Source: Gemmatimonadaceae bacterium
GTDB lineage: Bacteria > Gemmatimonadota > Gemmatimonadetes > Gemmatimonadales > Gemmatimonadaceae
Length of the DNA: 64,000 nt
Assembly (NCBI GenBank): GCA_051859245.1
Contig: JBHYGA010000008.1
Span: 47,179 to 111,178 of the forward strand
Reading direction: 5' to 3'
Under the pieces are notes generated by a model. That model did not search any database, was not told the DNA's origin, and saw only the letters and a list, made by a program, of their open reading frames with translations. Numbering within the stretch: the stretch's first letter is position 1; each line of letters starts with the position of its first letter. Below are positions 40,097 to 63,931 of this stretch, in pieces. The translations under genes and the position numbers were made by a program.

Positions 40097-40352
40097 GGTG
40101 GTGTTTGAAGAGTCGATTTGGGAGTGTCGTGCACCGCGTTCCGATGCGCGCCACGTCAAAGCTCGCACCGCGTCGGGGTGGTTGGAAGGGTTTACGCGTG
40201 GTGCATTCCGCGTGTTCGACATTACAATTTCGCGCGCGTTCTTTATACGCACTATTGCGCAGTTGAAATGTCCACACGTATATTCGCGTTAATTCAACAA
40301 CTTGCGCGCGCTGTCCACAGTGGACGCCGCACTCACTGAACCCCGGAACTGC

Positions 40353-42002
40353 GTGGCCATAAACCGGCGCGAGTTTCTTCAAGGCACAAGCGCTGCAGCA
40401 GCGGCGCTCGGATTGACCGTCGGCGCTCCGTCGCTGCTGTCAGCCGAAGGCTTCGCTCCACGCATCGCACATCCGGGAACGCCGGGCGACGCCGTGTCTC
40501 GCGACCTCGCCCTGCTCGCGCTCGATGCCGCAAAGTCCGCCGGTGCGTCGTACGCCGACGCCCGCATCAGTCGCAACAACGTGCGCACCGTGGCCACCCG
40601 CGAACAGCGTGTGCTCGGCCTGGTCGATAACGAAACGTTTGGCATCGGCGTGCGCGTGCTGGTTGGTGGGGCGTGGGGTTTCGCCGCCACGCACGAGCTC
40701 ACGCGTGACGAAGTGATCCGCGTGGCCAAGCAGGCGGTCGCACAGGCGCAGGCCAATCGTTCGGCGCAGCGTCGTCCGGTTACGCTTGCGCCCGTGACGC
40801 CCACGCCCGATGGCACGTGGCGTTCGCCGGCGCGCATCGATCCGTTCGACGTGCCGATCGAAGACCAGGTCGGATTGCTGTTGCAGGCCAACGAGGCGGC
40901 ACTCAAAGTGCTCAAGCCCGGTGGACGCGGCATGGGTTTTGTGAACTCGTCCATGTTCTTCCTGCGCGAAGAAAAAACGCTGGCCACCACCGACGGTACG
41001 TTCGTGGTGCAGACGATTTATCGGTCGCAGCCGAGCATGACGTGTCAGGCGGTGAACGTGTCGGCGGGTGATTTTCAGTCGCGCCAGAGCACGGACATTC
41101 AGCCCATGGGGCGCGGGTACGAGCATGTGCTCGACGCGAACCTGGTGGTGAATGCGGAACGCTGGGCCACCGAAGCTACGGAAAAACTGAGCGCCAAATC
41201 GGTGGATGTGGGGCGCTACGATCTGGTGCTGCACCCCACGCATTTGTGGCTCACGATTCACGAATCGATTGCGCATCCCACCGAACTCGATCGCGCGCTT
41301 GGCTTCGAAGCCAACTACGCCGGCACCAGTTTTGTGGCGCCGCCGGAGCGTGTGCTCGGCTCGCTCAAGTTCGGTCCGGAGTTCATGAACGTGCAGGCCG
41401 ACCGCTCGCAGGAAGGATCGTTGGCGGCGGTGGGTTGGGATGACGAAGGCGTGAAGCCCGACGAGTTCCTGATCATCAAGAACGGCATCATGAACGACTA
41501 CCAGACCACGCGCGAACAGGCGCCGTATCTGGAATCGTGGTACCGCTCGCAGGGGCGCGAGGTGCGGTCGCACGGCAACTCGTATTCGCAAAGCTGGGCA
41601 GACGTGCAGTTCCAGCGTATGCCGAATGTGTCGCTCATGCCGGGCGAGCGTGATCTGGTGTGGGATGATCTCATTGCGGCTACAGATCGCGGGATCGCGA
41701 TTGTAGGTGACGGATCGTTCTCCATTGATCAGCAGCGCTACAACGCGCAGTTCGGCGGCCAGCTGTTCTACGAAATCCGCGGTGGCAAGATCGTGGGTAT
41801 GCTCAAGGACGTCGCGTATCAAATGCGCACGCCCGAGTTCTGGGGCGGCATGGATATGCTCGGCGGCAAGCGCAGCTACGTGCTGGGCGGTGCGTTCAAC
41901 GATGGCAAGGGTCAGCCCTCGCAGTCGAACGCCGTGAGCCATGGCTGCCCGCCCACGCGCCACAAAGCGGTGAATGTGATCAACACGGGACGGCAGTCGT
42001 GA
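40353..42002 (+). CDS. tldD: TldD metalloprotease with Tat-like leader
   Basis: NRREFL leader; HESIAH, DDEG, RMPN, SHGCP. Confidence 0.9.
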   Translation: MAINRREFLQGTSAAAAALGLTVGAPSLLSAEGFAPRIAHPGTPGDAVSRDLALLALDAAKSAGASYADARISRNNVRTVATREQRVLGLVDNETFGIGVRVLVGGAWGFAATHELTRDEVIRVAKQAVAQAQANRSAQRRPVTLAPVTPTPDGTWRSPARIDPFDVPIEDQVGLLLQANEAALKVLKPGGRGMGFVNSSMFFLREEKTLATTDGTFVVQTIYRSQPSMTCQAVNVSAGDFQSRQSTDIQPMGRGYEHVLDANLVVNAERWATEATEKLSAKSVDVGRYDLVLHPTHLWLTIHESIAHPTELDRALGFEANYAGTSFVAPPERVLGSLKFGPEFMNVQADRSQEGSLAAVGWDDEGVKPDEFLIIKNGIMNDYQTTREQAPYLESWYRSQGREVRSHGNSYSQSWADVQFQRMPNVSLMPGERDLVWDDLIAATDRGIAIVGDGSFSIDQQRYNAQFGGQLFYEIRGGKIVGMLKDVAYQMRTPEFWGGMDMLGGKRSYVLGGAFNDGKGQPSQSNAVSHGCPPTRHKAVNVINTGRQS

Positions 42003-43378
42003 GCGGCCCGCGTTCGCTGTACTCGGCCGCGCTCGCGCCGCATTTGTCGCGCGAGCAGGCGCAGGCGCTCACCGCGCGTGTCCTCAGCTTTTCTACGGCC
42101 GACGAGATGCGTGTGAACGTGAACTCGGGTTCTACGGCCAACACGCGCTTTGCGGTGAACCAGGTTTCCACGGCGGGTGACAACACCAACGTGTCGATCA
42201 CGGTGCGCGCGGTGTTCGGCAAAAAAGCCGGTAGTGCGACCACTAATCGCCTCGATGACGAATCGCTGCGCGCCGTGGTAAAGCGTGCCGAATCGCTCGC
42301 GCGACTGGCGCCGGAAGATCCGGAAATGCTACCCGAGCTCGGCCCGCAAACGTATTTGAATGGAAGTGCCTACTCCGCGAACACGGCCAATCTTGATCCG
42401 GCCGGACGTGCGCGAGCGGTGCAGGCCATTACCGAACCGGCCGCTGCGGCCGGACTAATCGCCACAGGTTATATGCAGGCCAACACCGGTTCGTCGGCGG
42501 TTGCCACGTCGCGCGGATTGTTTGCCTGGGCTGAACAAACGGCGTCGTCGCTCACCACCACGGTGCGCACCACAGACGGAACTGGTTCTGGTTGGGCCGG
42601 TGCCACGCATCATGATTGGTCGCGGATCAATCCCGCTGAACTCGGCGCGCGTGCCATCGACAAGGCTAAACGTTCGGCGAATCCCGTGGCTGTTGAACCG
42701 GGGCGTTACACCGTGGTGCTCGAGCCGACAGCGGTTGGCAACCTTGTGCAGTTGATCGTTGGTGCGGCGCAGGCGCGCTCGGCCGACGAAGGGCGTTCGT
42801 TTTTTTCAAAGCCTGGCGGCGGTACCAAGATCGGACTCAAAGTGGTGGATGAGCGCGTGACGCTGCTCTCCGATCCGCTGGATGCCGACGCGGCTGGCAG
42901 CACGTTTGGTGGCGATGGACTGCCCACGTCCAAAATGACGTGGATTGAAAACGGCGTGGTGAAGAACCTCGCGTACGATCGCTATTGGGCGCAGCAGAAG
43001 GGCGCACAGGCGTCGGCGTTTTCGGGTTCACTGCGCATGATGGGTGGCAACAGCAGTGTGGAGGAGATGATCGCGTCGACCGAGCGCGGACTCCTCGTGA
43101 CACGGCTCTGGTATATCCGACCGGTTGATCCGCGCACGATTCTGTTCACCGGCCTCACACGCGACGGCACGTTCCTCATTGAGAACGGCAAAGTCACGCG
43201 CGCGGTCAAGAATCTGCGGTGGAACGAGTCTCCGATTTTCATGCTCAACAACATTGAAGCGATGGGTGCACCGGTGCGTGTCAGCGCCAGTGAAGACGGC
43301 GGGCCTGGTCAGGCTGTCGTTGTTCCACCGCTCAAAGTTCGTGATTTCACATTCACCAGTCTTAGCGACGCGGTATAA
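41999..43378 (+). CDS. tldE: TldE/PmbA partner
   Basis: TRFAVN, PGRYTVVLEP, TGLTRDG, NLRWNES; overlaps tldD stop. Confidence 0.88.
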   Translation: MSGPRSLYSAALAPHLSREQAQALTARVLSFSTADEMRVNVNSGSTANTRFAVNQVSTAGDNTNVSITVRAVFGKKAGSATTNRLDDESLRAVVKRAESLARLAPEDPEMLPELGPQTYLNGSAYSANTANLDPAGRARAVQAITEPAAAAGLIATGYMQANTGSSAVATSRGLFAWAEQTASSLTTTVRTTDGTGSGWAGATHHDWSRINPAELGARAIDKAKRSANPVAVEPGRYTVVLEPTAVGNLVQLIVGAAQARSADEGRSFFSKPGGGTKIGLKVVDERVTLLSDPLDADAAGSTFGGDGLPTSKMTWIENGVVKNLAYDRYWAQQKGAQASAFSGSLRMMGGNSSVEEMIASTERGLLVTRLWYIRPVDPRTILFTGLTRDGTFLIENGKVTRAVKNLRWNESPIFMLNNIEAMGAPVRVSASEDGGPGQAVVVPPLKVRDFTFTSLSDAV

Positions 43379-52099: not shown

Positions 52100-52192
52100 G
52101 CAGCGCGACGGGATAAGGGTGGGCAGGCGAACGTATCTGCCACGCCCGTCCCGGTCAATGCCAGCACAACCGGAACATGAACAAAAGTGAAA

Positions 52193-52266
52193 TGCGCGCG
52201 GCAGGATTCGAACCTGCGACCTTCGCCTCCGGAGGGCGACGCTCTATCCAACTGAGCTACGCGCGC
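52193..52266 (-). tRNA. tRNA-Arg (CCG), CCA not encoded
   Basis: GCGCGCG acceptor stem, AGTTGGATA D-loop, TCGCC-CTCCGGA-GGCGA anticodon arm, GTTCGAATC. Confidence 0.96.
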
Positions 52267-52388
52267 AGTGTGGTAAGCCTAACGGCGCGGCCCCACTGCG
52301 AGCAAGCAGTTGACGCGAGGTAACGAGTGGCGACCGGCGTTGACGCGTGGTGACGCCAAGATGACGCCGGCTCGTATGCTGGGGCAGC

Positions 52389-53342
52389 TTGTCCACCCTA
52401 GCCCCTGATCGGATGCTCATAGAATTTGGCGTACCGCGCACCGCGCTCGCCGCTGTACGCGGTCTCCTTCCCGTTGGCGCCGAGCTGCATCACGCGGAGA
52501 GCATGCGCCGCCTTCGCTCGCTGGCGGGTCAAGCCAGCGGCGTGCTGGTCGGTTTCGAGGATCTCCCAACCGACGAGCTCATCGCGGACATGCAGCTGCT
52601 GCGGGTGCGGCATCCGTGGTTGCCAATCGTGGCCGCCGGCTCGGTCCCGATCTACGGTATCAGCTCCTTCAAGCGGCACGACCTGCTGCAGGCCGGCGTC
52701 GATCGCGTCATGTCCTTTACCGCGCCAACGCGGGCCGATCGCGCGCTGCGGGAAAGCTGGCGTCACTCGCCGCTCCAGCGACTCGCGGCCGTGGTGTATC
52801 ACGCGGAGCACGTCCCGGAGAACATTCGCGAGTTGATGGTCAAAGCGATTGCCGCGCAGGTGCCGGTCGCGAACGTAGCCGAACTCGCCAAGATCGGTGG
52901 AATGCATCGGGCGTCGCTCTGGAAGTCGTGGGCCCGTTCATCGCGACCCTTGCCCACGGCCGGCGCGTTTATTGACTGGCTGCAACTCCTGCACGTGGCG
53001 GTACGCAAAGACACCGGTCGCACCTGGCGGGGGGTGGCCAGCGAACTCGGCGTTCGTCATTCCTCCATTTCGCGCATGGGTAAGCGCGTATTGGGACACA
53101 CGCTCTCCGAGTATGACGAACGTGTGCGGCGTCGAATCTTTGATCGGTTTCTCCGCGACGCGGTTGGCTTCACGCAGCTGGAAATCCGAACGCACGCGCT
53201 CGTGGCCCCACCCTTGGTGGACGACGCCGGCGTGCCTGCCGCTCCGGTCCCTGATCCGCCGCCTCGCGATCCGGCGGTCGAGGCCGCCATTCGGGCCGAA
53301 CAGCGTGAGTACTACGGCATCGGGCGCATGTGGGCGATGTAG
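52389..53342 (+). CDS. AraC-like regulator with receiver-like N-terminal domain (start uncertain)
   Basis: Two HTHs: VAELAKIGGMHRASLWK and WRGVASELGVRHSSISR. Confidence 0.7.
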   Translation: MSTLAPDRMLIEFGVPRTALAAVRGLLPVGAELHHAESMRRLRSLAGQASGVLVGFEDLPTDELIADMQLLRVRHPWLPIVAAGSVPIYGISSFKRHDLLQAGVDRVMSFTAPTRADRALRESWRHSPLQRLAAVVYHAEHVPENIRELMVKAIAAQVPVANVAELAKIGGMHRASLWKSWARSSRPLPTAGAFIDWLQLLHVAVRKDTGRTWRGVASELGVRHSSISRMGKRVLGHTLSEYDERVRRRIFDRFLRDAVGFTQLEIRTHALVAPPLVDDAGVPAAPVPDPPPRDPAVEAAIRAEQREYYGIGRMWAM

Positions 53343-53370
53343 CGCGCCCACACGAAGTCCCACGCCCGTG

Positions 53371-54207
53371 TCAGTCGGCGGCGGCCACGCTGCCCTGCGC
53401 CGAAAAATGCACCATGGGCGTGGGCGAGGCGGCGCCGAACTCGCGGCGAAAGGTCTGGAGTGACTCTTCATACGCGCCTTCATGGCGCAACTGACGTACA
53501 CCCTTGCCGAGGTAGCGCTTGAGTAGCGAACCCAGGCTTCGCCACGACGGCACATCGAGCTGCGACGCGACCAGCGACAGTGGTGCGCCGTCAAAACAAA
53601 TCTGATGCGCGGCATACAGCGCGCGACACCAGCTCACGAGCTCACTGGCCGGCGGACTGCCGGCCCCGCGAAGCCGGTTGTGCAATGTGCGTCGACTGAG
53701 ACCGAGCCCCGCCGAGATGGATAGCACATCCAGCGGTTCGCGCAGGTGACGACAGATGAACTGCACCGTGAGGCGAACCTCACGAGGCAACCCTTCACTC
53801 ATCGCATCCGCGAGTCGCGACGAGACGCCGCGCTGCTCGGCGTTCTGTAACACACGCTGCAGCACGCTTCGCGAGTCGTCGATGTCTCGCAGCAGGAGGT
53901 CCGCGAGATCGGCTTTGCCCGTTTGCAGAATGAAGCGGGACGTCAGGTTGCGCGGGTCGACGTAACCGATAATCGGGTGGTCCGGAAAGGCGTGGCGCAG
54001 CTGTTCCACCGCTGCGAACGCTTCCTTCTGCCGCGACGGCTCAAACAGCACGACGGTGGCGCAGATCCTGATCGAGGCCGAGAGGGCCTCGATAACATCG
54101 GTGCCCGAGTCGGCTCGCCAGAGTACCGCGAAGCCGCGAAACGCCTCGGATAGCCGGGCGTGGGCAATCCGATCAACAAAAAGAAGGGCCACACGGCGTT
54201 CAGCCAC
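53371..54207 (-). CDS. AraC-like regulator with receiver-like N-terminal domain
   Basis: ISAGLGLSRRTLHNRL, VASQLDVPSWRSLGSLLKRYLG. Confidence 0.8.
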   Translation of the reverse strand: MAERRVALLFVDRIAHARLSEAFRGFAVLWRADSGTDVIEALSASIRICATVVLFEPSRQKEAFAAVEQLRHAFPDHPIIGYVDPRNLTSRFILQTGKADLADLLLRDIDDSRSVLQRVLQNAEQRGVSSRLADAMSEGLPREVRLTVQFICRHLREPLDVLSISAGLGLSRRTLHNRLRGAGSPPASELVSWCRALYAAHQICFDGAPLSLVASQLDVPSWRSLGSLLKRYLGKGVRQLRHEGAYEESLQTFRREFGAASPTPMVHFSAQGSVAAAD

Positions 54208-54225
54208 GCGTGGCCCCAAAAGTCG

Positions 54226-54255
54226 TTGCCCGTGGAGTGCACCAATTGCCCGTGG
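54226..54255 (+). promoter_or_regulatory. Tandem direct-repeat operator TTGCCCGTGG-N10-TTGCCCGTGG
   Basis: Exact 10-mers at 54226 and 54246; same arrangement at 56131-56160. Confidence 0.7.
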
Positions 54256-54315
54256 CGAGCACCCGCTCCGGTTTGAGAAGGGCTACTAGTTCTTCAACCC
54301 TTACCGGAGTCGCAA

Positions 54316-54444
54316 ATGTCACGTTCGATCCGCCTCTTGGCCGTAGCCCTGATCAGCTCGTTCGCCCTCGCCGCCTGCACGGGTTCACCGACCGGCGTTG
54401 ACGATCCAAAGCAGTCGAGCTTTGACACGATGCCTTGGGTGTGA
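54316..54444 (+). CDS. 42-aa lipoprotein-type propeptide MSRSIRLLAVALISSFALAACTGSPTGVDDPKQSSFDTMPWV
   Basis: GGAG RBS at 54306-54309; basic N-terminus, hydrophobic core, lipobox LAAC; fills the gap between regulator and TPR gene. Confidence 0.8.
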   Translation: MSRSIRLLAVALISSFALAACTGSPTGVDDPKQSSFDTMPWV

Positions 54445-54462
54445 TGTAGAGGCGGGGTGGGC

Positions 54463-55668
54463 TCACGCTGCCACTGAGCACAAACGAGCCAACCCTGTTC
54501 GGGCAGCCTCCGGAAGAGTCTCCTCAGCCGGACTGTCAGTCTCCAGCGACGCCGTGACGAGTGGCTGGGTCGTAACCCGATCCAGCGCCTCCTCGGCTCT
54601 ATACGCAAGTTCGTGGAATTCATGCGTGCGCGCCAGTGCCAGTGCCTCGCGGCCGAATCGTTCGGCCGGTTCTGGCTCGCTCGCGGCGGTCCACCCTTGC
54701 GCCAGACCCAGCAGCCACTGGCAGTGCTCGAAGGGCACGGCCGTGCTGGTGTGTCGCTGTCCACGGGTCTCAAGTTGTTTTAACAGGTCACGACGTCCGG
54801 CGTCCCCGGCGGCGTGCGCTGCGGACGCCGCAATGCTGAGCCAGAGCCGAGCCGGCTTGGCGAGGCGCAGGGCGCCCTCAAAGCCGGCCACTGCCTGGTC
54901 CACAAAACGGGCTCGGTGGGCGACCGACGCAAGGTTGGACAGAATACCGGCCCGCTCGTCGTCGGTGGTGGCCAGGTCGTGTGCCCGCCATCCGTGCAAC
55001 AGCGCATCGGCCAGCGAGTTGGTGGCCAGCGCGTAGTTCATCAGCCCCCACCGTGCGGCACCCTCAAGGGCGGTGTTCAACGGCGCGACGGCGAGGGCCT
55101 GGGTAAAAAAACCAAGCTGCGCCGGGCGATTGCCTCGCATGATGGCGATGTTGCCCAAACCCGCCAACGCCAAGCCAGCTACCGCCGGATAGCCGCGCGA
55201 CGTGCCGTCTTCCACCACGTTGCGGTAAATCTCCTCGGCCGTTTCCACGTCGCCGAGCTGTCGCGCAATACGTGCCAGCTGATTGTTGGCACACATCGCA
55301 CTCACCGCGTCGAATCGCGCGACAATTCGCGCCGCCGCCGTCACCGTGGTGTAGGCCATTTCAAAACAGCCGTCGCGCTCCATTTCTTCCGCGGCCACGC
55401 GCAGCTGTTCGGACATGACCACGAACGGATTCGCCGATCGCGGATTGCCGTAGTCGATATGCGTGGGACGTCGCTCCGGATCCGGCAGGAGCGACTCGGG
55501 CGTGGTGCGAATGAATCCCAGTCGCGCTTCTGGTGGAAGCGACGCGATTCGATACGCCAGATGCGTGATCGAGAACCAGCCATGCGGCTGCGTAGGGTGC
55601 CCGAGCCAGCGGTCCCCTTCGCCCACATCGACCTGATACGCGTTCATCGGAATTAGCGGTTCACGCAT
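54463..55668 (-). CDS. Cytoplasmic TPR-repeat protein
   Basis: AAGGAG RBS; helical repeats LARIARQLGDVETA, GLGNIAIMRGN, ILSNLA, AERFGREALALA; no signal peptide. Confidence 0.8.
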   Translation of the reverse strand: MREPLIPMNAYQVDVGEGDRWLGHPTQPHGWFSITHLAYRIASLPPEARLGFIRTTPESLLPDPERRPTHIDYGNPRSANPFVVMSEQLRVAAEEMERDGCFEMAYTTVTAAARIVARFDAVSAMCANNQLARIARQLGDVETAEEIYRNVVEDGTSRGYPAVAGLALAGLGNIAIMRGNRPAQLGFFTQALAVAPLNTALEGAARWGLMNYALATNSLADALLHGWRAHDLATTDDERAGILSNLASVAHRARFVDQAVAGFEGALRLAKPARLWLSIAASAAHAAGDAGRRDLLKQLETRGQRHTSTAVPFEHCQWLLGLAQGWTAASEPEPAERFGREALALARTHEFHELAYRAEEALDRVTTQPLVTASLETDSPAEETLPEAARTGLARLCSVAA

Positions 55669-55704
55669 CATCACTCCTTCTTCGGCAGTGGCCGACGGTT
55701 TGGT

Positions 55705-56040
55705 TCACGACAGGTTCTTCGCGTCATTTGACGCTGGCGGCAATGACAACGGTGGGGGACTGCTGAGCAGATCACCGCGGCTACGCAATAGATGCGCAAC
55801 ACGCAGCGCATCGATCACACGTTCGACCTGACCTGGTCGATCGCTGAACGGGAGATTGCACAACGCGACCATGAATCGCATCCATGCGGCCTCGTACCCC
55901 GCACGAATGCGCGCGTTGACCTCGTCGGGGGCTGCATCGCGAACCGCAGTGGCCGCCGTCAACAACTCTCGTTCCGCCAACCACACTTCATAGTGCGATT
56001 GCGACTCGGGGTCGTTGATAGGGTCAGGCGGATCGCTCAT
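55705..56040 (-). CDS. Small helical hypothetical protein
   Basis: ATG ORF co-oriented 36 nt upstream of the TPR gene. Confidence 0.55.
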   Translation of the reverse strand: MSDPPDPINDPESQSHYEVWLAERELLTAATAVRDAAPDEVNARIRAGYEAAWMRFMVALCNLPFSDRPGQVERVIDALRVAHLLRSRGDLLSSPPPLSLPPASNDAKNLS

Positions 56041-56130
56041 GCACGCGTGAAAATGGTGAAGGTCCAAGGCAACGAATTGCACATTCTCCAACCACAAACA
56101 TGTGCGATTTCCGGCGAGGGCATGTGTACC

Positions 56131-56160
56131 CCACGGGCATTTTGTGTGCACCACGGGCAA
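56131..56160 (-). promoter_or_regulatory. Tandem operator TTGCCCGTGG-N10-ATGCCCGTGG
   Basis: Plus strand CCACGGGCAT (56131) and CCACGGGCAA (56151). Confidence 0.7.
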
Positions 56161-56422
56161 CTGATTTCATGCCACGAGCCGTTTCGCCCGTCGTATCGTT
56201 GGGCTCGCTTGGCAAATTTTGTGTATCACGACACACTTTGGGGTGAAGCCAATCGTGTACCCGCGCCGTATACTGGGGCAGCAGAGGCGATGGCGCCGCA
56301 AGCCGGCCCAGCAACCTTTTGCCGGTTTCGCGCCACCAATGGGCGACCCTTTTCTGCGTTCGCTTCTATCTCACCACGTCGCCGACAGCTCCGGTCGGTC
56401 CCGCCCTGTGACCCGATAGCGC

Positions 56423-57616
56423 ATGTCATCTCGTATCACTCGTCCATCAGTGCTCCTGCTGCTCGGTTGTGTTGCGTTCGCCTGTAAGGGCGACGGAGAC
56501 GACAGCGCCAATGGCGATTCCACTGCTGACAGCGCCTCCGTGGCCGATGCAGCCCCCGACGGTGACGCACCACGCGCTGGCGTGGCGCTTCCCGTTGTGG
56601 CCGAAGAAGCGCGCGAAGGTGATCTCGTATTGCGGGTTAACACGCGCGGCGATGTATACGGCGATGTGGTGGTCAAGCTTTCAGCAGATGTCAGCGGCCG
56701 CGTGGCGGAAGTGCTGGTGAAGGCCGGTTCGCGCGTGAGCAAAGGGCAGCCGCTGGTTCGACTGGCGCAGGAACCGTTCGATCTCGCGGTTCGTGAGGCG
56801 CAGTCGGCACTCGACGAACGTGAACAGGCATTTCGCGAATCCTTCATGCCGGAATCGTTGGTCACGGGTATTGGCCCCACGGGCGAGCAGCGCAAAGCAC
56901 TTCGCGTGCGCAGTGGCGCGGCGGCGGCCGAAATTCGGCTTGAGAAAGCGCAGTGGGAACGGAGTCGTTCGGTGATTGTGTCACCGGTGAACGGCTTTAT
57001 TGACCGGTTTGATCTTGCGGTTGGTGAGCAGCTTGGTGCGGGCACACCGTTTGCAACGGTGGTGGACGTTGGCGCGCTGCGTATCGAAGCGCGTGTGCTC
57101 GAAGACGATCTACCGCTCATTCGTGTGGGCGGTGAAGCTGTGGTGTCGATTCCCGCCGTGCCCGGGCGCGTGTTGCGAGGACGTATCGATGCGGTGTTGC
57201 CGCTGGTGGATAGTGTGCGGCGTACGGGGCGCGTGATTGTGCGCGTGCCCGGCGAGTCATCACTGCGTCCAGGCATGTACGCGGATGTGCAGTTGGAAGC
57301 ACAGCGTTTGCCGGGGCGCATCATGGTGCCGGCTAAAGCGGTTATTGAACGCGATGGTCGTCCGCTGGTGTTCGTGGTGCGCGAGGGGCGCGGTCAGTGG
57401 ACGTACATTCAACCTGGTCGCAGTAACGGCGTAGACACGGAAGTGCTGCCCGACTCGACCACGGGTGTCATTCCGATCAACAAGGGCGATCAGATTATTG
57501 TAGACGGGCACCTCACGCTCACGCACGACGCCGCGGTTACGGTGTCCTCGCTGCGTGAACGCGATGATGCACCAGCGCGGCGCACGCCGGCGTCGGTGCG
57601 CCGCGAAAACAACTAG
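56423..57616 (+). CDS. RND efflux periplasmic adaptor (lipoprotein)
   Basis: Lipobox AFAC; VSGRV..V..G..VSKGQPL lipoyl motif; LRPGMY. Confidence 0.92.
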   Translation: MSSRITRPSVLLLLGCVAFACKGDGDDSANGDSTADSASVADAAPDGDAPRAGVALPVVAEEAREGDLVLRVNTRGDVYGDVVVKLSADVSGRVAEVLVKAGSRVSKGQPLVRLAQEPFDLAVREAQSALDEREQAFRESFMPESLVTGIGPTGEQRKALRVRSGAAAAEIRLEKAQWERSRSVIVSPVNGFIDRFDLAVGEQLGAGTPFATVVDVGALRIEARVLEDDLPLIRVGGEAVVSIPAVPGRVLRGRIDAVLPLVDSVRRTGRVIVRVPGESSLRPGMYADVQLEAQRLPGRIMVPAKAVIERDGRPLVFVVREGRGQWTYIQPGRSNGVDTEVLPDSTTGVIPINKGDQIIVDGHLTLTHDAAVTVSSLRERDDAPARRTPASVRRENN

Positions 57617-57626
57617 GCCGAGACGC

Positions 57627-60600
57627 ATGTCACTTTCGCGTCAGGCGATCGCACGTCCCGTCGCCACGATTGCTGCGGTACTTGGCGTGGTGCTGCTCGG
57701 CAGTGTCTCGCTGAGTCGCATGCCGGTGTCGCTGCTACCGGATGTCACGCTGCCCGTGTTGACCATTCGCACCAACTATCCAGGTGCGGCCGCAACGGAA
57801 GTCTCGCGGTTTGTTGGCGAACCCATTGAAGAAGCCATCGCGGCCACGCCGGGCTTGGTGGAGTTGCGATCGGTCAGTCGCAATGGCGAAGTCACCACAA
57901 CGGCGCGCTTTGGCTGGGGCACGGACATGCGCACCACGGTGCTCAATGTGCGTGAGCGCCTTGATGCCACGCGCAGCCGACTGCCCGAGCGTGCAGAACG
58001 TCCCACACTGCTCACCAGTGATCCCGGTGAACGGCCGATCGCGGTGCTCGGTATGCGGGCCACCAGCAGCGCGGAACGAGCGGCGCGTGACAGTTTGCAG
58101 GGCAGTGTCTCCGGTGGGCTTGGTGTGGGTGACCTGCGCGGACTTGCGCGCACCGCCGAAGATGTGTTCGCGCGACGTCTCGAGCAGATCGCCGGCGTGG
58201 CATCGGTTGCGGTGGTGGGTGCACCAGCCGACGAAATTCGCGTTGATGTGAATCCGGATCGATTGCGCGCGTTGTCACTCACACCGGAAGATGTCGCACA
58301 GGCCATTCGCGTTCAGAACTCCACCGGTGCCGGTGGTACGGTGCGTCGCGGACAGTTCCGGTTTTCGGTGCGTGCGCTGACGGAGTTTCGCGATATCGAT
58401 GAAATCCTGTCGGTACCGATTGGCGCACAGGGCAGTGGCATCACGCTACGCGATGTTGCGACGGCCTCAATCGCGCTAGCTGATCCGGTCACGATCACGC
58501 GCCTCGACGGTCGCGAGTCCATTGGTCTCGTGGTGTACAAAGACGCGGGCTCCAATACGGTGTCTGTCACCAACCGCATGATGGAAGCTGTGGAGTCGCT
58601 GGAAGCCGAGTTTCCGGCGGTGGAACTCACGGTGGTGGCGTCGCAGGCCGAGTTCGTGGTGGACGCGTTGTCTAATCTCGGTCAGGAAATTGTGGTGGGC
58701 GGCCTGATGTCGCTGCTCATGATTCTGGTGTTCCTGCGTGACTGGCGCGTGTCGATGGCGATTGGACTGATGGTGCCACTGTCGGTGATGGTGGCGCTGG
58801 TCACGTTGCAAACGCTCGGTGTGACGATCAACGTGCTCTCGCTGGGCGGACTCGCGCTTGGCACCGGTATTCTTGTTGATACTGCAATTGTTGTGGCGGA
58901 GGGTGTGGGACGACGGCGTGAAGAAGGTATGGGCTACATCGATGCGGCAATAGTGGGCACGGAAGAAGTGTCCGGACCACTGCTCGCGGGTACGCTCACC
59001 ACGATGCTGGTGTTTGGGCCGATCATTTTTGTGCAAGGATTGGCGGCTGCACTGTTCCGCGATCTGTCGCTGAGCGTGGTGATGACGGTTGGTGCGTCAC
59101 TGCTGCTGTCGCTCACCCTGATGCCGGTAATGATGGTGGGCAACCGGCGACGGGCCATGCGTTTGCAGGCCAATCCACAACCGAAAAAAGCGCCGGGCCC
59201 AACCGGCGCAAAGCTTGATGCCTTCGGTACGCGCATCGCAGATATGTACGAACACGGCATGTCATGGTCGCTGCGCAATCCGGTGCCAGTTTTTGCCGGT
59301 GGTTTGGCGTTGCTGGTGATCATGGTGGTGCTGTTCATTCGCTTGCCCAAGGAAGTGCTGCCGCGTGTTGACGAGGGCGTGCTGGTAGCCGAAGTGCAGT
59401 TGCCGGAAGGAACGGCGATCGAAGCCACCACCACCGCCATCGCCGACATTGAGCGCGCGTCCGCCGCGATGGGTGCGCAGGGAGTGTACGCACGTGTTGG
59501 TCGTGCAACTGATGAAGAAATTCTTTCGGGCGCAAATCCCGGATCGTCGGCCACGGCACAACTGATTGTGCCAGTACCCGACGGTGAGAGTGCGGCGCGT
59601 TTTGCAGAGGCACTCCGCGATTCCGTGCCGCAGCTGGTCGCGCAAGGTGCGCTCGCCATTGATCTGGCCGGCCAGTCGGAGTTTGGCTCGCTGATTGGCC
59701 GCGAAGGGCGCATTGTGCGCGTGGAAGTGTCGGGTGCATCGCTTGACGATTCGCAGCGATGGGCCGATTCCGTGCGCACCATGATGGGCGGCGTGCCCAC
59801 GCTTTCCGATGTGCGCGACGCCTTTGCGGCGACACAGCCGGTGATCGAAGTCTCGCTGTTGCGTTCGCGCATGGCCGAACGTGGCATCACGCCCGCACAA
59901 GTGGCGAGTGCGTTGCAGGGTGGACTGGGCGGTGTGGCGTCATCTGAACTGCGCGAAACAGATCGCCGTACACCAATTCGCGTTCGCTACGAAGGTGTGC
60001 GCAACGAGGAGTTGGAAACCGCGCTCAATACGAGCATTAACGGCGTGCCGGTGTCGCAGCTGGTTGAAGTGAAGGAAACGCGCGCGCCGCTTGAAGTGGT
60101 GCGTATTGGTCAGCGTCCCGTGTCCATTGTGGAAGGGCTCGTGGAAGAAGGGGGCACGGCGAAAGCCGCCACTGATGTGGCAAAGAACATGGAAGCACTC
60201 GGACTACCGGCCACGGTGAGCTGGCAGGTGGCGGGAGCAGACTCCGAACGCAAGCGTACCTCGGATGAGTTGGCGCTCGTTGCTGTGTTGGCCGTGCTGC
60301 TGGTGTTCCTCGTGCTCGCTGGCGAGTTCAGCTCGTTCACGATTCCGCTCGTGGTGATTACCACGGTACCGCTGGCAGCTGCCGGAGGCGTGATCTTCTT
60401 GTGGGCCACTGGGCAAAGCATCAACGCCGTGTCGCTCATCGGAATCGTGATCATGGTGGGTATGGCCGACAATGAAGCGGTCGTCAAACTCGACGCCATT
60501 CGGCGATTCCGCGAAATGGGTCACAGCGTGAACGAGTCGGTGTTGCTCGGTGGCCGACAGCGTTTGCGCGCCATTACCATGACGTCACTCACCACCATCA

Positions 60601-60851
60601 CCGGTGTACTGCCGCTCATGCTTGGCGTGGGCAGTGGTGGCGCGTTGTACCGTCCGCTTGCGGCGGCCGTGATTGGTGGATCAATCAGCGCACTGGTGGT
60701 GACGTTTTTCCTGTTGCCCACCGTGTACTCCGTTGTTGAGCGCAATCTTGAACGTCGTCGCAACGCGCAGGACGCTCGTGATGGCGGAAGTCGCGATGGT
60801 GAAGCGCGTGTTGCGCGTGATGTGGTACTCGCCCGAGGGGACGCGCTGTGA
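57627..60851 (+). CDS. RND efflux permease
   Basis: RPVAT, YPGA, INVLSLGGLALGTGILVD, RLRAITMT. Confidence 0.93.
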   Translation: MSLSRQAIARPVATIAAVLGVVLLGSVSLSRMPVSLLPDVTLPVLTIRTNYPGAAATEVSRFVGEPIEEAIAATPGLVELRSVSRNGEVTTTARFGWGTDMRTTVLNVRERLDATRSRLPERAERPTLLTSDPGERPIAVLGMRATSSAERAARDSLQGSVSGGLGVGDLRGLARTAEDVFARRLEQIAGVASVAVVGAPADEIRVDVNPDRLRALSLTPEDVAQAIRVQNSTGAGGTVRRGQFRFSVRALTEFRDIDEILSVPIGAQGSGITLRDVATASIALADPVTITRLDGRESIGLVVYKDAGSNTVSVTNRMMEAVESLEAEFPAVELTVVASQAEFVVDALSNLGQEIVVGGLMSLLMILVFLRDWRVSMAIGLMVPLSVMVALVTLQTLGVTINVLSLGGLALGTGILVDTAIVVAEGVGRRREEGMGYIDAAIVGTEEVSGPLLAGTLTTMLVFGPIIFVQGLAAALFRDLSLSVVMTVGASLLLSLTLMPVMMVGNRRRAMRLQANPQPKKAPGPTGAKLDAFGTRIADMYEHGMSWSLRNPVPVFAGGLALLVIMVVLFIRLPKEVLPRVDEGVLVAEVQLPEGTAIEATTTAIADIERASAAMGAQGVYARVGRATDEEILSGANPGSSATAQLIVPVPDGESAARFAEALRDSVPQLVAQGALAIDLAGQSEFGSLIGREGRIVRVEVSGASLDDSQRWADSVRTMMGGVPTLSDVRDAFAATQPVIEVSLLRSRMAERGITPAQVASALQGGLGGVASSELRETDRRTPIRVRYEGVRNEELETALNTSINGVPVSQLVEVKETRAPLEVVRIGQRPVSIVEGLVEEGGTAKAATDVAKNMEALGLPATVSWQVAGADSERKRTSDELALVAVLAVLLVFLVLAGEFSSFTIPLVVITTVPLAAAGGVIFLWATGQSINAVSLIGIVIMVGMADNEAVVKLDAIRRFREMGHSVNESVLLGGRQRLRAITMTSLTTITGVLPLMLGVGSGGALYRPLAAAVIGGSISALVVTFFLLPTVYSVVERNLERRRNAQDARDGGSRDGEARVARDVVLARGDAL

Positions 60852-63800
60852 TTGGTTTCGCCACGCGCCGACCGGCCGTTATCTGGGCCATGTGCGTTGC
60901 CATTCTGGTGGCGGGCGGCATCGCGTTTTCGCGCTTGCCGTTGGCATCGCGGACTACGGTAGAGCTGCCGCGGCTCACGGTGTCGGCCGGGTGGAATGGC
61001 GCGGCGGCGGAAGTTGTGGAGATGTACGTGACGTCGCCGATCGAATCGTTGGTGCAGGGCGTGCGCGGTGTACGTCGCACCACCAGTGAGTCGCGCGACA
61101 ACAGCATGAACATTACCGTGGAGCTCGATCCGGAAGCCGACGTGCAACTCGCGAGACTTGGCATTCTCGAGCGACTGGAACTGTTGCGTGGTGAGTTTCC
61201 GGCCGGTGTAACGCGACCGAGTGTCTCGAACTACACACCGGAGGGGTTGGAAGAGCCGGTGTTGTTGCAGGTGCAGGTCTCTGGTCCGTACACGCCGGGT
61301 GCGCTTGGCAAAATGCTTGAGGAACAGGCGTCGCCTCGGCTCGCCGCAGTACCTGGCGTGTCGGCTGTGTATTCGCGTGGCGGAAGTGATATCGGCGTGG
61401 CGTTGGCATACGATCCCGCGCGGCTTCGCCGGATCAATGTGTCGCCGGCGGCACTGTCGCAAGCGATCAATGGCGCGCGCGTTGTACAGGCGCTCGGTGA
61501 AGAAACGCGTGATGGTGTCACACGTTCGGTCACATTGCGTGATGAACCGCGCTCACTCGATGAAGTGGGTGCCCTGCCGATCAGTGCGCCGAACGATCGT
61601 GTGTTTCGCCTGAGCGAACTCTCCACGATTCGCGCCGAAGAAGATGCCGGCGGACGGTTTTTTCGGATTAACGGCGTTCCTGCTGTGGCGATCAGTTTGT
61701 ATCGGCATGCTGGTGCCGATGCCATCAAGACCGCGTTGGCGGCACGCGCGGAAGTGGCCGAGTTGCAGAAGATCGCGCCACCTGGCGTTCGGTATCGTGT
61801 GAGTCAGGATGCCAGCATCGATCTCGACAAAGAATTGAAAGATCTGATGAAGCGCGGAGCAATTGCGTTTGTCAGCGTATTGCTCGTGTTGGCGCTCATG
61901 TTGCAACGTGTTCGTGCGGTCGCACTCGTGATGTTCAGCACGGCGGTGGCCATTGCCGGTACGGCGCTGGGTTTGTACATGCTGGATGTGCCGGCGAACT
62001 TGCTCACGCTGGCTGGACTTGGCATGGGTGTTGGAATTCTGGTGCAAAACGCACTGGTCGTTGTAGACCGGATGCGCTCGGCGCCGAACACGGCCGAGGG
62101 GCGCGCGACTGCCGCATCACGCATCACGCCGGCGGTGATTGGTGCAACGCTTACCACGGCGGTGGTGCTCTTTCCGTTTCTGTATCTGCAAGGTGACACG
62201 CGCGCTGCGTTCGTGCCGTTTGCGGCTGCCTTCGCGCTGGCGCTCACGTGGAGTGTGATTACGGCGTTGCTGGTGGTGCCCGCGCTCGGCCGAGGTGGTG
62301 CGGGCGAGAAGGCGGTCACGTGGCCGCGCATGTCACGCGTGTTCAGAAAGATTGTGCGTGGGACGCTGCGCTGGCGCTGGGCCACGCTCACAACAAGTGT
62401 GGTGCTGTTGTCAGTGATGACGTGGGGTTTTGTGAAAAAGGTGCCGCGCTCGAGTTGGGGTGGCTGGGGCGAGCGTCGCACCACACTGGGGGTGAATCTC
62501 ACATTCCCGCGCGGCTCGGATCCGGAAACGCTCGACCGCGCGATGCGCGAGTTTGAATCGATTGTTGTTGGTCGTCCGGAAGTGGAGCAGGTGACCACGA
62601 CCGGCAACTTGCAGAGTGCGAACATGCAGGTGCTGTTCACGCGCGAAGGTGGCATGACGGCCGTGCCACTGGAGCTCGAAGAGCTGCTCACGCAGCGCGC
62701 TGTGCTCGTGGGTGGTGCAAACATCAGCGTACGCGGTGAAGGGCCGGGCTTTTACGCTGGTGGTGGCGGTGGCACATCGGTGTCGTTCCGAATTCGCGTG
62801 CTTGGATATTCGTATTCTGGCGTCACAGCGTTGGCCGAAGACTTGAAGAGTCGCCTGAGCAAGATTGCGCGAGTTCGCGACATTTCCATTACATCGGGTC
62901 AGGGGTGGGGGAACGAACGTGGTTACGCCGTCACGCTCGAGCCTGATCGCGATGCGCTCGCACGTTTTGGTGTGACGTCAACAGACTTTGCGGCTGCGGT
63001 GGCGCGTGAAGTTCGTGGACCGGTGGGTGGCCAGCTGCTGGAAATCGACGGCGACGAACTGCCGGTAACCGTGAAGTCCATTGGCGCGCGAGATCGCACA
63101 CTGGAGCAGTTGCGTGAAGCAATCATGCCCACGGAATCAGGTGCACCGGCCCGCCTGAGTGACCTCGCCTACGTGGATGCGCAGGAAGCGCTGAGCATTG
63201 TGACGCGTGAAGACCAGCAGTATATCCGGCAGGTGAACTACGACTTTCGTGGCCCACAGAAACTTGCGCAACGCACCCACGATGCGTTTCTGAAATCAGT
63301 GGCCGTTCCCGCCGGATACGATGTGAAAGACGCCGGCTCCATGTGGGGCTACAACGACGACAAGAGTGCGAAAGGGTTGTGGTTGGTGTTTGGCATCGGG
63401 CTCGCGTTGGTCGTACTCGCGGTCGCGCTGGTGTTTGATTCCGTTTGGGGCGCGGCCATGGTGTTTCTGTCGCTGCCACTCGCGCTCGCCGGTGTTGTGG
63501 CAGCGTTCTGGATCCAAAAGGCCGCGTTTGGTCGCGAAGCGGCGGTTGGTGTGATTCTTGTGGTGGGATTGGCCGTGAACCAGGCGATTCTGCTGGTTGA
63601 TGCGGCACTCATTCGTCGCCGACAGCGTGCGGCGACGGGTGGATCCAGCGCACTGCACGCCGGAGATATTCTGCGCGCCGCCAATGATCGCTCCGGCATG
63701 ATTGTGCTCGTCACGTTGAGTGCGCTGGCGAGTCTCGTGCCGCTGAGTGTGGGAACCAGCGCTACCACATTGTTCGGTGCGATCGCACTGGCAACGGCCG

Positions 63801-63931
63801 GCGGCACGATCATGGGAACGGTTGGCGCGTTGTTCCTCATGCCGGCGATGCTTGTTGGGCAGCGGTTGAGTAAGCGAACGAAGCGGCGGTTGTTCTCGAA
63901 GAAGCAGCCGAGGGAAGTGGTGGCGGTGTAG
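60848..63931 (+). CDS. Second, divergent RND permease
   Basis: TSPIES, NLLTLAGL, GLAVNQAILL; overlaps the previous stop. Confidence 0.88.
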   Translation: MIGFATRRPAVIWAMCVAILVAGGIAFSRLPLASRTTVELPRLTVSAGWNGAAAEVVEMYVTSPIESLVQGVRGVRRTTSESRDNSMNITVELDPEADVQLARLGILERLELLRGEFPAGVTRPSVSNYTPEGLEEPVLLQVQVSGPYTPGALGKMLEEQASPRLAAVPGVSAVYSRGGSDIGVALAYDPARLRRINVSPAALSQAINGARVVQALGEETRDGVTRSVTLRDEPRSLDEVGALPISAPNDRVFRLSELSTIRAEEDAGGRFFRINGVPAVAISLYRHAGADAIKTALAARAEVAELQKIAPPGVRYRVSQDASIDLDKELKDLMKRGAIAFVSVLLVLALMLQRVRAVALVMFSTAVAIAGTALGLYMLDVPANLLTLAGLGMGVGILVQNALVVVDRMRSAPNTAEGRATAASRITPAVIGATLTTAVVLFPFLYLQGDTRAAFVPFAAAFALALTWSVITALLVVPALGRGGAGEKAVTWPRMSRVFRKIVRGTLRWRWATLTTSVVLLSVMTWGFVKKVPRSSWGGWGERRTTLGVNLTFPRGSDPETLDRAMREFESIVVGRPEVEQVTTTGNLQSANMQVLFTREGGMTAVPLELEELLTQRAVLVGGANISVRGEGPGFYAGGGGGTSVSFRIRVLGYSYSGVTALAEDLKSRLSKIARVRDISITSGQGWGNERGYAVTLEPDRDALARFGVTSTDFAAAVAREVRGPVGGQLLEIDGDELPVTVKSIGARDRTLEQLREAIMPTESGAPARLSDLAYVDAQEALSIVTREDQQYIRQVNYDFRGPQKLAQRTHDAFLKSVAVPAGYDVKDAGSMWGYNDDKSAKGLWLVFGIGLALVVLAVALVFDSVWGAAMVFLSLPLALAGVVAAFWIQKAAFGREAAVGVILVVGLAVNQAILLVDAALIRRRQRAATGGSSALHAGDILRAANDRSGMIVLVTLSALASLVPLSVGTSATTLFGAIALATAGGTIMGTVGALFLMPAMLVGQRLSKRTKRRLFSKKQPREVVAV

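Follow-up and report, generated by a model that had tools for sequence, protein, structure and literature searches.

A conserved three-gene cassette around a 42-residue lipoprotein of Gemmatimonadaceae, possibly a peptide-signalling circuit with a TPR receptor

A gene of 42 codons, named slp42 here, lies in a stretch of 64,000 nucleotides from a Gemmatimonadaceae bacterium (assembly GCA_051859245.1, contig JBHYGA010000008.1, positions 47,179 to 111,178 of the forward strand); this whole stretch is called the window, and coordinates refer to it. Alignments of its relatives identify slp42 as a real gene under purifying selection. By sequence comparison it belongs, together with the genes of a TPR protein (TPR403) and of a regulator (reg282), to a cassette conserved in many Gemmatimonadaceae, whose small lipoproteins end in lineage-specific units, often repeated, and which carries two matching operators, O1 and O2, in the window. 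We propose that slp42 encodes the propeptide of a self-contained cassette for peptide signalling, Rap/Phr- or RRNPP-like, in a diderm phylum, a reading for which we find the balance to be about even. The layout is reg282 (leftward), O1, slp42 (rightward), then TPR403 and the small gene p111 (both leftward), and O2.

The slp42 gene and the selection acting on it

Read directly from the window, the translation of slp42 is MSRSIRLLAVALISSFALAACTGSPTGVDDPKQSSFDTMPWV (42 aa). Its parts are the following.

54306..54309, + strand: Shine-Dalgarno sequence GGAG, 6 nt ahead of the ATG; GGAG is kept in 14/14 loci of the window's genus
54316..54444, + strand: slp42, gene of a 42-aa lipoprotein, the putative propeptide; ATG at 54316, TGA at 54442-54444
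54316..54375, + strand: signal peptide, residues 1-20, MSRSIRLLAVALISSFALAA, near-invariant in the genus
54376..54402, + strand: Cys21 and motif CTGSPTGVD, the most constrained segment
54403..54423, + strand: variable linker, residues 30-36, DPKQSSF
54424..54441, + strand: C-terminal unit DTMPWV (the tip), proposed signal peptide (pheromone); genus consensus D[ST][MI]PW[VT]

A first-pass annotation of the window had pointed to this open reading frame (ORF), with its GGAG ribosome-binding site, its lipobox Cys and 21 residues downstream of that Cys, and all these elements read as it gave them. The N-terminus is made of an n-region with two Arg (MSRSIR), a hydrophobic h-region (LLAVALISSF) and ALAAC. 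The lipobox L-A-A-C matches the pattern [LVI][ASTVI][GAS]C, and Cys21 is invariant in the 13/13 sequences of the genus alignment. The genome carries genes for Lgt (PF01790, 1 match over the cut-off) and for LspA, the signal peptidase II (PF01252, 3 matches over the cut-off). From these sequence features and genes, slp42 is predicted to be a substrate of Sec and signal peptidase II (Sec/SPII). The gene takes up the greater part of the 243 nt that separate two genes of the minus strand, whose near ends are at 54219 and 54463; since one of them starts and the other stops at this gap, slp42 should have its own promoter and be monocistronic.

Relatives were sought in 40 related genomes. Two unpublished genomes, G021 and G064, were among those sampled, and no conclusion here depends on them. 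An intact orthologue of 41-43 aa, with ATG, TGA and upstream GGAG, was found in 13/14 genomes of the same genus; the only one without it, G008, has a completeness of 88%, and the neighbouring HlyD-like gene is missing from it too. Start, stop and Shine-Dalgarno sequence are kept in 14/14 genus loci, and length differences are whole codons throughout. Over the 43 codons of the alignment (14 sequences), variable sites at codon positions 1/2/3 number 19/8/36. Seven of the eight at second positions, and all indels, fall in columns 30-37, i.e. the linker; columns 1-21 (signal peptide and Cys codon) have none at the second position and 15 at the third. The ratio of nonsynonymous to synonymous substitution rates (dN/dS, Nei-Gojobori, 13 of the 14 sequences, one near-identical copy being left out) is 0.21 overall, and the corresponding ratio of proportions (pN/pS) is 1.67 and 6.19 in the two alternative frames. 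By segment, dN/dS is 0.15 for residues 2-21, 0.013 for C21-D29, 0.48 for the linker and 0.175 for the tip, in which D37, P40 and W41 are invariant (13/13). The first-pass annotation had made its reading depend on an undisrupted ORF in close relatives and on a C-terminus better conserved than the linker: no relative found has a disrupted ORF, and the tip has the lower dN/dS of the two segments. In contrast, its delimitation of the tip, as a hydrophobic FDTMPWV, stands in part only. There is indeed a conserved C-terminal unit; it begins at Asp37, Phe36 not being conserved, and it is not uniformly hydrophobic.

The signal peptide of slp42 is 85-100% identical across the genus. As a control, that of the neighbouring HlyD-like lipoprotein is 24-43% identical in 10/11 of the same genomes, its mature part being 68-85% identical (12 of 16 places used, partial ones left out).

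Database searches with slp42 returned no family. In Pfam, 0 families matched at E <= 1, hence neither Lysis_col nor Entericidin, and NCBIfam gave sub-threshold matches to the signal peptide only (LptM, 13.7 bits vs a cut-off of 27.7; YgdI/YgdR, 11.5 vs 42). Among 5.8 billion clustered proteins, 15 clusters match, named, where they have a name, 'hypothetical protein' or 'predicted small secreted protein'. The single-sequence search gave nothing convincing beyond the genus (best E 0.017), and relatives beyond it were reached only by profile and TPR-anchored searches. From the 29 related loci returned, 15 (Streptomyces, Acidimicrobiales, Chloroflexota) were rejected, as they match at most query residues 1-35, essentially the signal peptide. 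Rfam has no match at E <= 1 in 53300-55800. D-[ST]-[MI] is a Bacteroidetes-type O-glycosylation sequon; reading the tip as such a site was rejected, the cassette homologues having DVK, DLK, DQI and GTI at this place.

The cassette, its C-terminal units and its operators

In 14/14 genus loci, slp42 sits between divergent reg282 and convergent TPR403, with the small p111 gene upstream of TPR403 in the same operon. Only 18 nt separate the stops of slp42 and TPR403.

53371..54219, - strand: reg282, receiver-like N-domain and AraC-type domain with two helix-turn-helix motifs (two-HTH); divergent from slp42; syntenic in 14/14 genus loci and in other genera
54463..55674, - strand: TPR403, TPR superhelix protein of ~400 aa (403), proposed receptor; convergent with slp42
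55705..56040, - strand: p111, small protein of no known family, first gene of the p111-TPR403 operon; start ATG at 56040

How far the cassette extends was followed with a TPR profile (A2), made of the window sequence, 28 of 48 database relatives and two locus-derived sequences. The TPR family was found in 61/151 sampled genomes of Gemmatimonadaceae, belonging to 34/77 genera. In a phylum-wide sample, it was present in 14/52 genomes of Gemmatimonadaceae, 0/113 of the next-largest family and 0/84 in nine further families; in one more family, 1/1 genome gave a weak TPR match without the cassette. Two single-contig genomes of a sister genus, G080 and G250, carry the cassette. The slot between regulator and TPR genes was then searched for a small ORF: a first lipobox pattern recognized it in 23/30 loci, the other seven were found by eye, and a slightly wider pattern then matched 30/30. 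An opposite-strand lipobox ORF occupies the slot in the 30/30 best TPR-anchored loci and in 8/8 further family loci taken from the phylum-wide sample (38/38); of stretches of 700 nt drawn at random from the window's genome, 92/2000 contain the same pattern. In the 30 loci, the small gene stops at a distance ranging from 17 nt inside to 104 nt beyond the stop of the TPR gene. Since no flanking gene family other than the regulator and TPR ones is common across the 30 loci, the conserved unit is three genes. A modifying enzyme, as expected for ribosomally synthesized and post-translationally modified peptides (RiPPs), is likewise absent from the flanking families common to these loci.

The arrangement of regulator, small lipoprotein and TPR genes recurs in G122, of another genus, and in L062, a groundwater Gemmatimonadetes record, where the flanking proteins are only 28-32% identical to those of the window. 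The G122 propeptide is MSRTALFRLLFVALLVSTAAACTKSPTGPNEPVRQRDSIPWN, with the tip ...RDSIPWN, and the L062 tip is ...HRDTIPWN. As the tip is kept there despite diverged signal peptides and linkers and distant flanking proteins, it survives across genera.

Common to the slot proteins are the signal peptide of a lipoprotein, a linker of low complexity and, directly after the Cys, the motif C-[STG]-x-[SP]-P-T-[GA]-P or a variant of it. This motif is rare elsewhere, being found in 4/296 other lipoprotein candidates of the window's genome. Their C-termini, on the other hand, fall into lineage-specific classes.

PW tips, single copy: DTMPWV, DSIPWN, DTLPWN, DTFPWN, DVKPWG, DVRPWG (several genera)
PW tips, multi-copy: DVSVPWY x3 with 11-residue spacers (G102); ATEVVPWF x2 (G048); SGGTIPWF x2 (G153)
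PW unit plus Cys-containing tail: ...KDQIPWH plus tail (G250)
C..C HGT[LQ]PWY class: G129, G070, G093
..PEPGM[VT]CR[GS]D.W.W class: G158, G109, G020
Contiguous heptapeptide repeats: DFVNPNA x4, DYVNPNV x5, DFVNPNV x2, DFVNPHV x3, DYINPNA x2, DYVNPLG x4 or x5 (several genera)
Heptapeptide-repeat class, single-copy members: D[LY]INP[KR]V (several genera)
GYS-loop class: G067, G059, G016

Many of these proteins have 2-5 copies of a unit of 7-8 residues, contiguous or spaced, followed in some by a short unrelated tail. Such exact repeats resemble multi-copy pheromone precursors: parts of PMC11343458 describe tandem pheromone duplication within propeptides for Rap-Phr, and PMC9765709, in the sections consulted, several peptides per propeptide in many systems of the AimR, PlcR, Rap and NprR types. 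Multi-copy units of 7-8 residues make sense only if they are cut out. On a tree of 45 TPR proteins (a quick IQ-TREE result), the peptide classes form clades, with NPx in 11 rows (support 99) and PW in three places. In a sister genus, g61 (L081, L083, L124-L128), the unit varies between genomes: DVKPWG, DLKPWG, DVRPWG, DSKVWG, EQWPWN, DQIPWH plus tail. This variation looks like pherotype diversification, unlike the uniform tip of the window's genus.

Upstream of slp42 and of the p111-TPR403 operon lie related direct repeats.

54226..54243, + strand: operator O1, half-site a, TTGCCCGTGGAGTGCACC; direct repeat; top score in the genome for a pair of half-sites, 49.8
54246..54263, + strand: operator O1, half-site b, TTGCCCGTGGCGAGCACC; adjoins the presumed -35 region of the slp42 promoter
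54283..54290, + strand: putative -10-like element, CTACTAGT; in the genus alignment, no block other than this one (CTA..T.T) is conserved from O1 to the ribosome-binding site; weak
56121..56162, - strand: operator O2, second tandem pair of O1-type half-sites, upstream of p111-TPR403, in the gap shared with a divergent RND efflux operon

O1 is made of two 18-nt direct half-sites, 89% identical, with a spacing of 20 nt, and it is kept in 14/14 genus loci amid varying intergenic DNA. A weight matrix built from 28 genus half-sites was run over all 4.7 Mb of the genome in search of half-site pairs spaced by 20 nt. O2 scored 34.6 next to the 49.8 of O1, and the next best site 12.5: O1 and O2 are the sole strong half-site pairs of the genome. 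O2 is found in 12/12 genus loci, with scores of 28.8-52.9. In other lineages, repeats of another sequence occupy this position with the same spacing, e.g. ACATAGCGT twice in G122 and GCGCCGCAAAA twice in G056. Overall, a repeat with 20-21-nt spacing is present 80-123 nt before the start codon in 15/30 loci, at a score reached by <=5% of 200 shuffles. A scan for the sigma-70 consensus found no promoter, and one for terminators returned a single terminator-like site, inside reg282. A 15-aa mini-ORF with LPWT downstream of O2 (56084..56037, - strand) was dropped, as it is not conserved past the closest relative.

With its single sequence, reg282 reaches 23.4 bits for Pfam HTH_18, below the cut-off of 33.6. 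A profile of 33 regulators (A3) matches in the PDB, over positions 146-245, AdpA (5.8e-14), VirS (1.5e-10) and SoxS (3.1e-7) and, over positions 6-91, the NtrC receiver (6.5e-5). On these profile matches, reg282 has the C-terminal two-HTH domain that defines the AraC/XylS family. Its AlphaFold2 model, with a mean predicted local distance difference test score (pLDDT) of 90.9, consists of a (beta-alpha)5 domain, a long helix and seven helices, and its top Foldseek matches are full-length response regulators: FixJ, StyR, PorX, RcsB and NarL. At the acceptor position, the window's genus has E60-P61, and 16/33 family members have Asp; the N-domain should therefore be a pseudo-receiver in this genus.

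Pfam matches of TPR403 (TPR_12 and others) are below cut-off, and PADLOC returns only its generic TPR model (E 3.6e-4) and no defence system. The AlphaFold2 model (31 sequences, pLDDT 89.9) has three N-terminal helices (8-55), a linker and sixteen helices forming eight TPR-like pairs. Its Foldseek matches are OGT, designed TPRs, LGN and domain III of MalT. VIA structural Z scores against RRNPP proteins are 18.5 for a phage Rap with peptide, 18.4 for RapI, 17.0 for RapH-Spo0F, 16.8 for NprR-NprX, 15.9 for AimR and 15.3 for PlcR-PapR; against LGN, Pins and MalT domain III, they are 22.7, 21.2 and 19.8. The modelled fold would suit a peptide receptor, without pointing to the RRNPP family in particular. 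Three residues of TPR403, R134, R137 and N246, are invariant. No signal peptide or N-terminal hydrophobic stretch was seen in TPR403, which should therefore be cytoplasmic.

The first gene of the operon, p111, belongs to no family in Pfam, NCBIfam or PADLOC. Its ATG at 56040 is conserved in 10/12 genus loci, and conservation, including a motif YEVWLAEREL, begins there; the longest ORF (151 aa, to 56160) is over-called, its first 40 codons being translated operator and promoter. On the other side of the cassette lies a paralogue of reg282:

52389..53342, + strand: p317, receiver-like and AraC-type domain; convergent with reg282; conserved in the genus

Aligned to the A3 profile with hhalign, p317 has a probability of 96.8, E 2.1e-10 and 231 columns. 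Three further pairs of TPR and regulator genes are found in the genome, as overlapping two-gene operons (C4:488445-490653, C4:32275-34438 and C1:1255692-1257828), which suggests that the two proteins function as a pair elsewhere in the genome too. A Cys-rich secreted ORF of 82 aa (C4:486975-487223) lies 1.2 kb from the first of these pairs.

Further genes were recorded around the cassette. The RND efflux operon (56423-63931, + strand) encodes an HlyD-type membrane-fusion lipoprotein and two AcrB-type proteins, with overlapping starts, and is syntenic with the cassette across the genus; lying in the gap between it and p111-TPR403, O2 might affect the pump too. At 40302-43378 (+ strand), 11 kb from the cassette, two adjacent genes encode a PmbA/TldD-type metallopeptidase pair, a family whose members process small peptides in other bacteria. 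A tRNA-Arg (anticodon CCG; 52192-52267, - strand) is located between the rho gene and p317.

The proposed circuit and its rivals

In the circuit that we propose, Sec would export the 42-aa precursor, Cys21 would be lipidated, and cleavage by signal peptidase II would leave a membrane-tethered lipopeptide of 22 residues. A protease would then excise the C-terminal unit, approximately DTMPWV here and elsewhere several copies of the lineage's own 7-8-residue unit. The free peptide would accumulate and re-enter the cell, for example via one of three Opp/Dpp-type systems: the genome has three SBP_bac_5 genes for binding proteins of this type. Once imported, it might dock in the concave face of cytoplasmic TPR403. 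This protein would control reg282; the simplest way would be to hold the receiver-like domain of reg282, in the manner of Rap proteins with response regulators. reg282 would bind the tandem half-sites of O1 and O2 and drive slp42 and the p111-TPR403 operon, so that signal and receptor would both be under feedback, and it probably also acts on its own divergent promoter. The sign of regulation, activation, is likewise part of the model. The first-pass annotation had suggested a tethered precursor with a tip released as a signal. Comparative evidence partly supports it: the tip is kept across genera, other lineages have multi-copy units, and the flanking TPR and regulator genes come with matching operators.

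Several observations weigh against this circuit. Generic TPR proteins outscore the RRNPP receptors in structural comparison with TPR403, so that the match of TPR fold is non-discriminating, and at the sequence level the match between TPR403 and NprR is only E 0.89. No HTH family was found in TPR403 with Pfam or NCBIfam, and the receptor would thus be one without its own HTH; the convergent gene order is unlike that of most RRNPP pairs. The three paralogous TPR and regulator operons have no intervening lipoprotein gene, so that inputs of another kind are possible for the pair. In other lineages, only 3/11 loci were found to have a second operator copy upstream of the TPR operon, and in 8/11 none was found within 700 nt upstream of the TPR gene. 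No exporter, protease or importer linked to the cassette was found among the flanking genes of the 30 loci. A 6-7-mer released by a diderm has to pass an outer membrane twice if it is to act between cells. The fact that peptide classes track the TPR tree is expected from co-inheritance alone, and we do not use it as evidence for binding. Finally, the tip does not diversify into pherotypes within the window's genus, where signal peptide and CTGSPTGVD are more constrained than it is. The signalling model leaves this constraint unexplained; directly after the lipid anchor, CTGSPTGVD may be a processing or sorting site, which is a guess.

Among other explanations, the one to be taken most seriously, unlikely as we judge it, is that slp42 encodes a regulated envelope effector and not a signal: the TPR-regulator pair would sense something else and switch on a tethered small lipoprotein. 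The operators mark the small gene as a target of the regulator, and a target need not be the input; the three paralogous pairs are devoid of a lipoprotein gene. The lipid anchor, the constrained CTGSPTGVD and the invariant signal peptide all fit a function at the membrane. The product might serve as an adaptor and attach by its C-terminal PW tail to a partner in the periplasm or outer membrane, e.g. a PDZ protease reading aromatic C-termini, and several tips do end in an aromatic residue (PWY, PWF). However, a docking tail must be C-terminal, and exact internal repeats of 7-8 residues, with spacers or tails, are then hard to explain. Moreover, the mature part of slot proteins is 21-80 residues of low-complexity linker without a fold, and strict linkage of three genes in 38/38 loci, with nothing else conserved, suggests a self-closing circuit. 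An improbable alternative is a private envelope reporter with the same architecture, in which the peptide stays with the cell: its release rate by a periplasmic protease would report the state of the envelope, and it would be re-imported and read by the TPR protein. In its favour, a precursor held by a lipid anchor remains in the envelope of the cell that makes it, the outer membrane is a barrier that speaks against free exchange, the cassette has no linked exporter, and Opp/Dpp-type binding proteins are present. Against it, multi-copy units amplify output, which sections of PMC11343458 present as typical of secreted pheromones, and lineage-specific diversification of the unit is expected from discrimination between kin and non-kin, for which a private reporter has no need.

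The remaining three explanations have little in their favour. The hydrophobic fragment released from the signal peptide might itself be the active molecule, as for enterococcal sex pheromones. This would account for 85-100% identity in the genus, with no second-position change, vs 24-43% for the neighbouring lipoprotein (10/11 genomes). Nevertheless, this sequence diverges freely across genera where the C-terminal unit is kept or multiplied, and a very short precursor, exported after translation, may just require a signal peptide that is optimal for this, so that we give this explanation very little credit. Equally slim is the chance that slp42 encodes a small lytic or toxic lipoprotein resembling colicin lysis proteins or entericidins, tightly controlled by the regulator pair. 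Those precursors are similar in size and architecture (lipoproteins of about 45 aa), and a look-alike cluster proposed by a language model is named colicin E1 lysis protein (score 0.82), a lead only; but slp42 has no Pfam match at E <= 1, the cassette includes no bacteriocin or antidote gene, and nothing in those families corresponds to the variable, repeated C-terminal units. Lastly, slp42 could have been a chance ORF in a promoter/terminator region between two genes, being short, intergenic and free of family annotation, with a GC content at codon position 1 (0.51) below that of its neighbours. Frame-specific purifying selection, start, stop and Shine-Dalgarno sequence kept in 14/14 loci, indels of whole codons and positional homologues in 38/38 loci reduce its probability to practically nothing, and as far as comparative data allow it is already refuted.

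The signalling circuit can also be stated at its widest, for the family as a whole, and here we are more tentative, the chances being in our view somewhat under even. It would be the first TPR-receptor peptide-pheromone circuit outside Gram-positives, a Gemmatimonadaceae-wide quorum sensing evolved independently of RRNPP, in which a lipid-anchored propeptide, in many cases multi-copy, is cut to signals of 6-8 residues (DTMPWV in the window; DFVNPNA, DVSVPWY, DYVNPLG and others elsewhere); these would return into the cell, and the TPR protein that reads them would free a pseudo-receiver/AraC activator for two operators.

Comparison with known systems

Peptide pheromones with a cytoplasmic TPR receptor count as a hallmark of Bacillota and of the mobile elements of these bacteria, and diderm bacteria are thought to rely on small molecules for signalling instead. 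If the proposed circuit is true, TPR-read peptide signalling arose, or spread, beyond Gram-positives, and Gemmatimonadota, whose Gemmatimonadaceae are a widespread and little-studied group, would have their first candidate cell-cell signal. Two questions would follow: by what route short peptides pass an outer membrane, and how the cell processes a propeptide that is anchored by a lipid. The system is compact, with three genes, two operators and short peptides, and the case of slp42 illustrates that a regulatory module can be centred on an ORF too short for the usual length cut-off. In the portions of the literature surveyed (including PMC10075063, PMC9765709 and PMC11343458), RRNPP-type systems are placed only in Firmicutes/Bacillota, 'Gram-positive' bacteria and their mobile elements. 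Our literature search, within the terms used, returned no description of such a cassette or of an RRNPP-type system in Gemmatimonadota or other diderms.

Among systems with which the cassette shares single traits, the small Gram-negative lipoproteins (colicin lysis proteins PF02402, entericidins, LptM, YgdI/YgdR) have the size and Sec/SPII architecture of slp42, but differ in gene context, and slp42 matches none at family cut-offs. Enterococcal pheromones are part of the signal peptide of full-size lipoprotein precursors. There too, a lipoprotein precursor is the source of a short peptide read in the cytoplasm, whereas the slp-type unit is C-terminal and multiplied, in a precursor without folded domain. 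Activators of the AraC/XylS type bind tandem direct-repeat half-sites adjoining -35. Likewise, reg282 has a predicted two-HTH domain, O1 and O2 consist of 18-bp direct half-sites 20 bp apart just upstream of presumed promoters, and the regulator's own gene is divergent. Unlike in those activators, the N-domain of reg282 is receiver-like and not of the sugar- or effector-binding type; the effector would be TPR403 or its peptide complex.

Closer in logic are the Rap-Phr systems acting on response regulators (RapH-Spo0F, Rap-ComA). TPR403 similarly has a short N-terminal helical part and a putative partner with a receiver fold, and the peptide would relieve the hold of the TPR protein on this partner. 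In contrast to Rap, no phosphatase function is implied, the receiver-like domain of reg282 lacks the acceptor Asp in the window's genus, and the contact between TPR403 and reg282 is purely a proposal of the model. More generally, the cassette is like the RRNPP(A) systems (Rap-Phr, NprR-NprX, PlcR-PapR, PrgX, Rgg-SHP, AimR-AimP) in that a small exported propeptide gene adjoins a gene for a cytoplasmic TPR protein. As in these systems, activity would reside in a unit of 5-8 residues from the C-terminal region, several propeptides carry more than one copy, the circuit would control its own propeptide gene, and Opp-type importers are available. TPR403 matches Rap, NprR, AimR and PlcR structurally at Z 15-18.5, below its scores against generic TPR proteins. 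The differences are a diderm phylum, Gemmatimonadota; a predicted lipoprotein precursor (Sec/SPII) instead of a Sec/SPI (signal peptidase I) or leaderless peptide; a TPR protein without HTH, with DNA binding entrusted to a separate AraC-type protein; a gene order both convergent and divergent; and a receptor, TPR403, whose homology is not demonstrable by sequence. The Gemmatimonadaceae circuit would thus work like RRNPP and Rap-Phr systems, but is not filed with them, because of a receptor without demonstrable homology and without an HTH, the predicted lipoprotein nature of the precursor and the diderm phylum.

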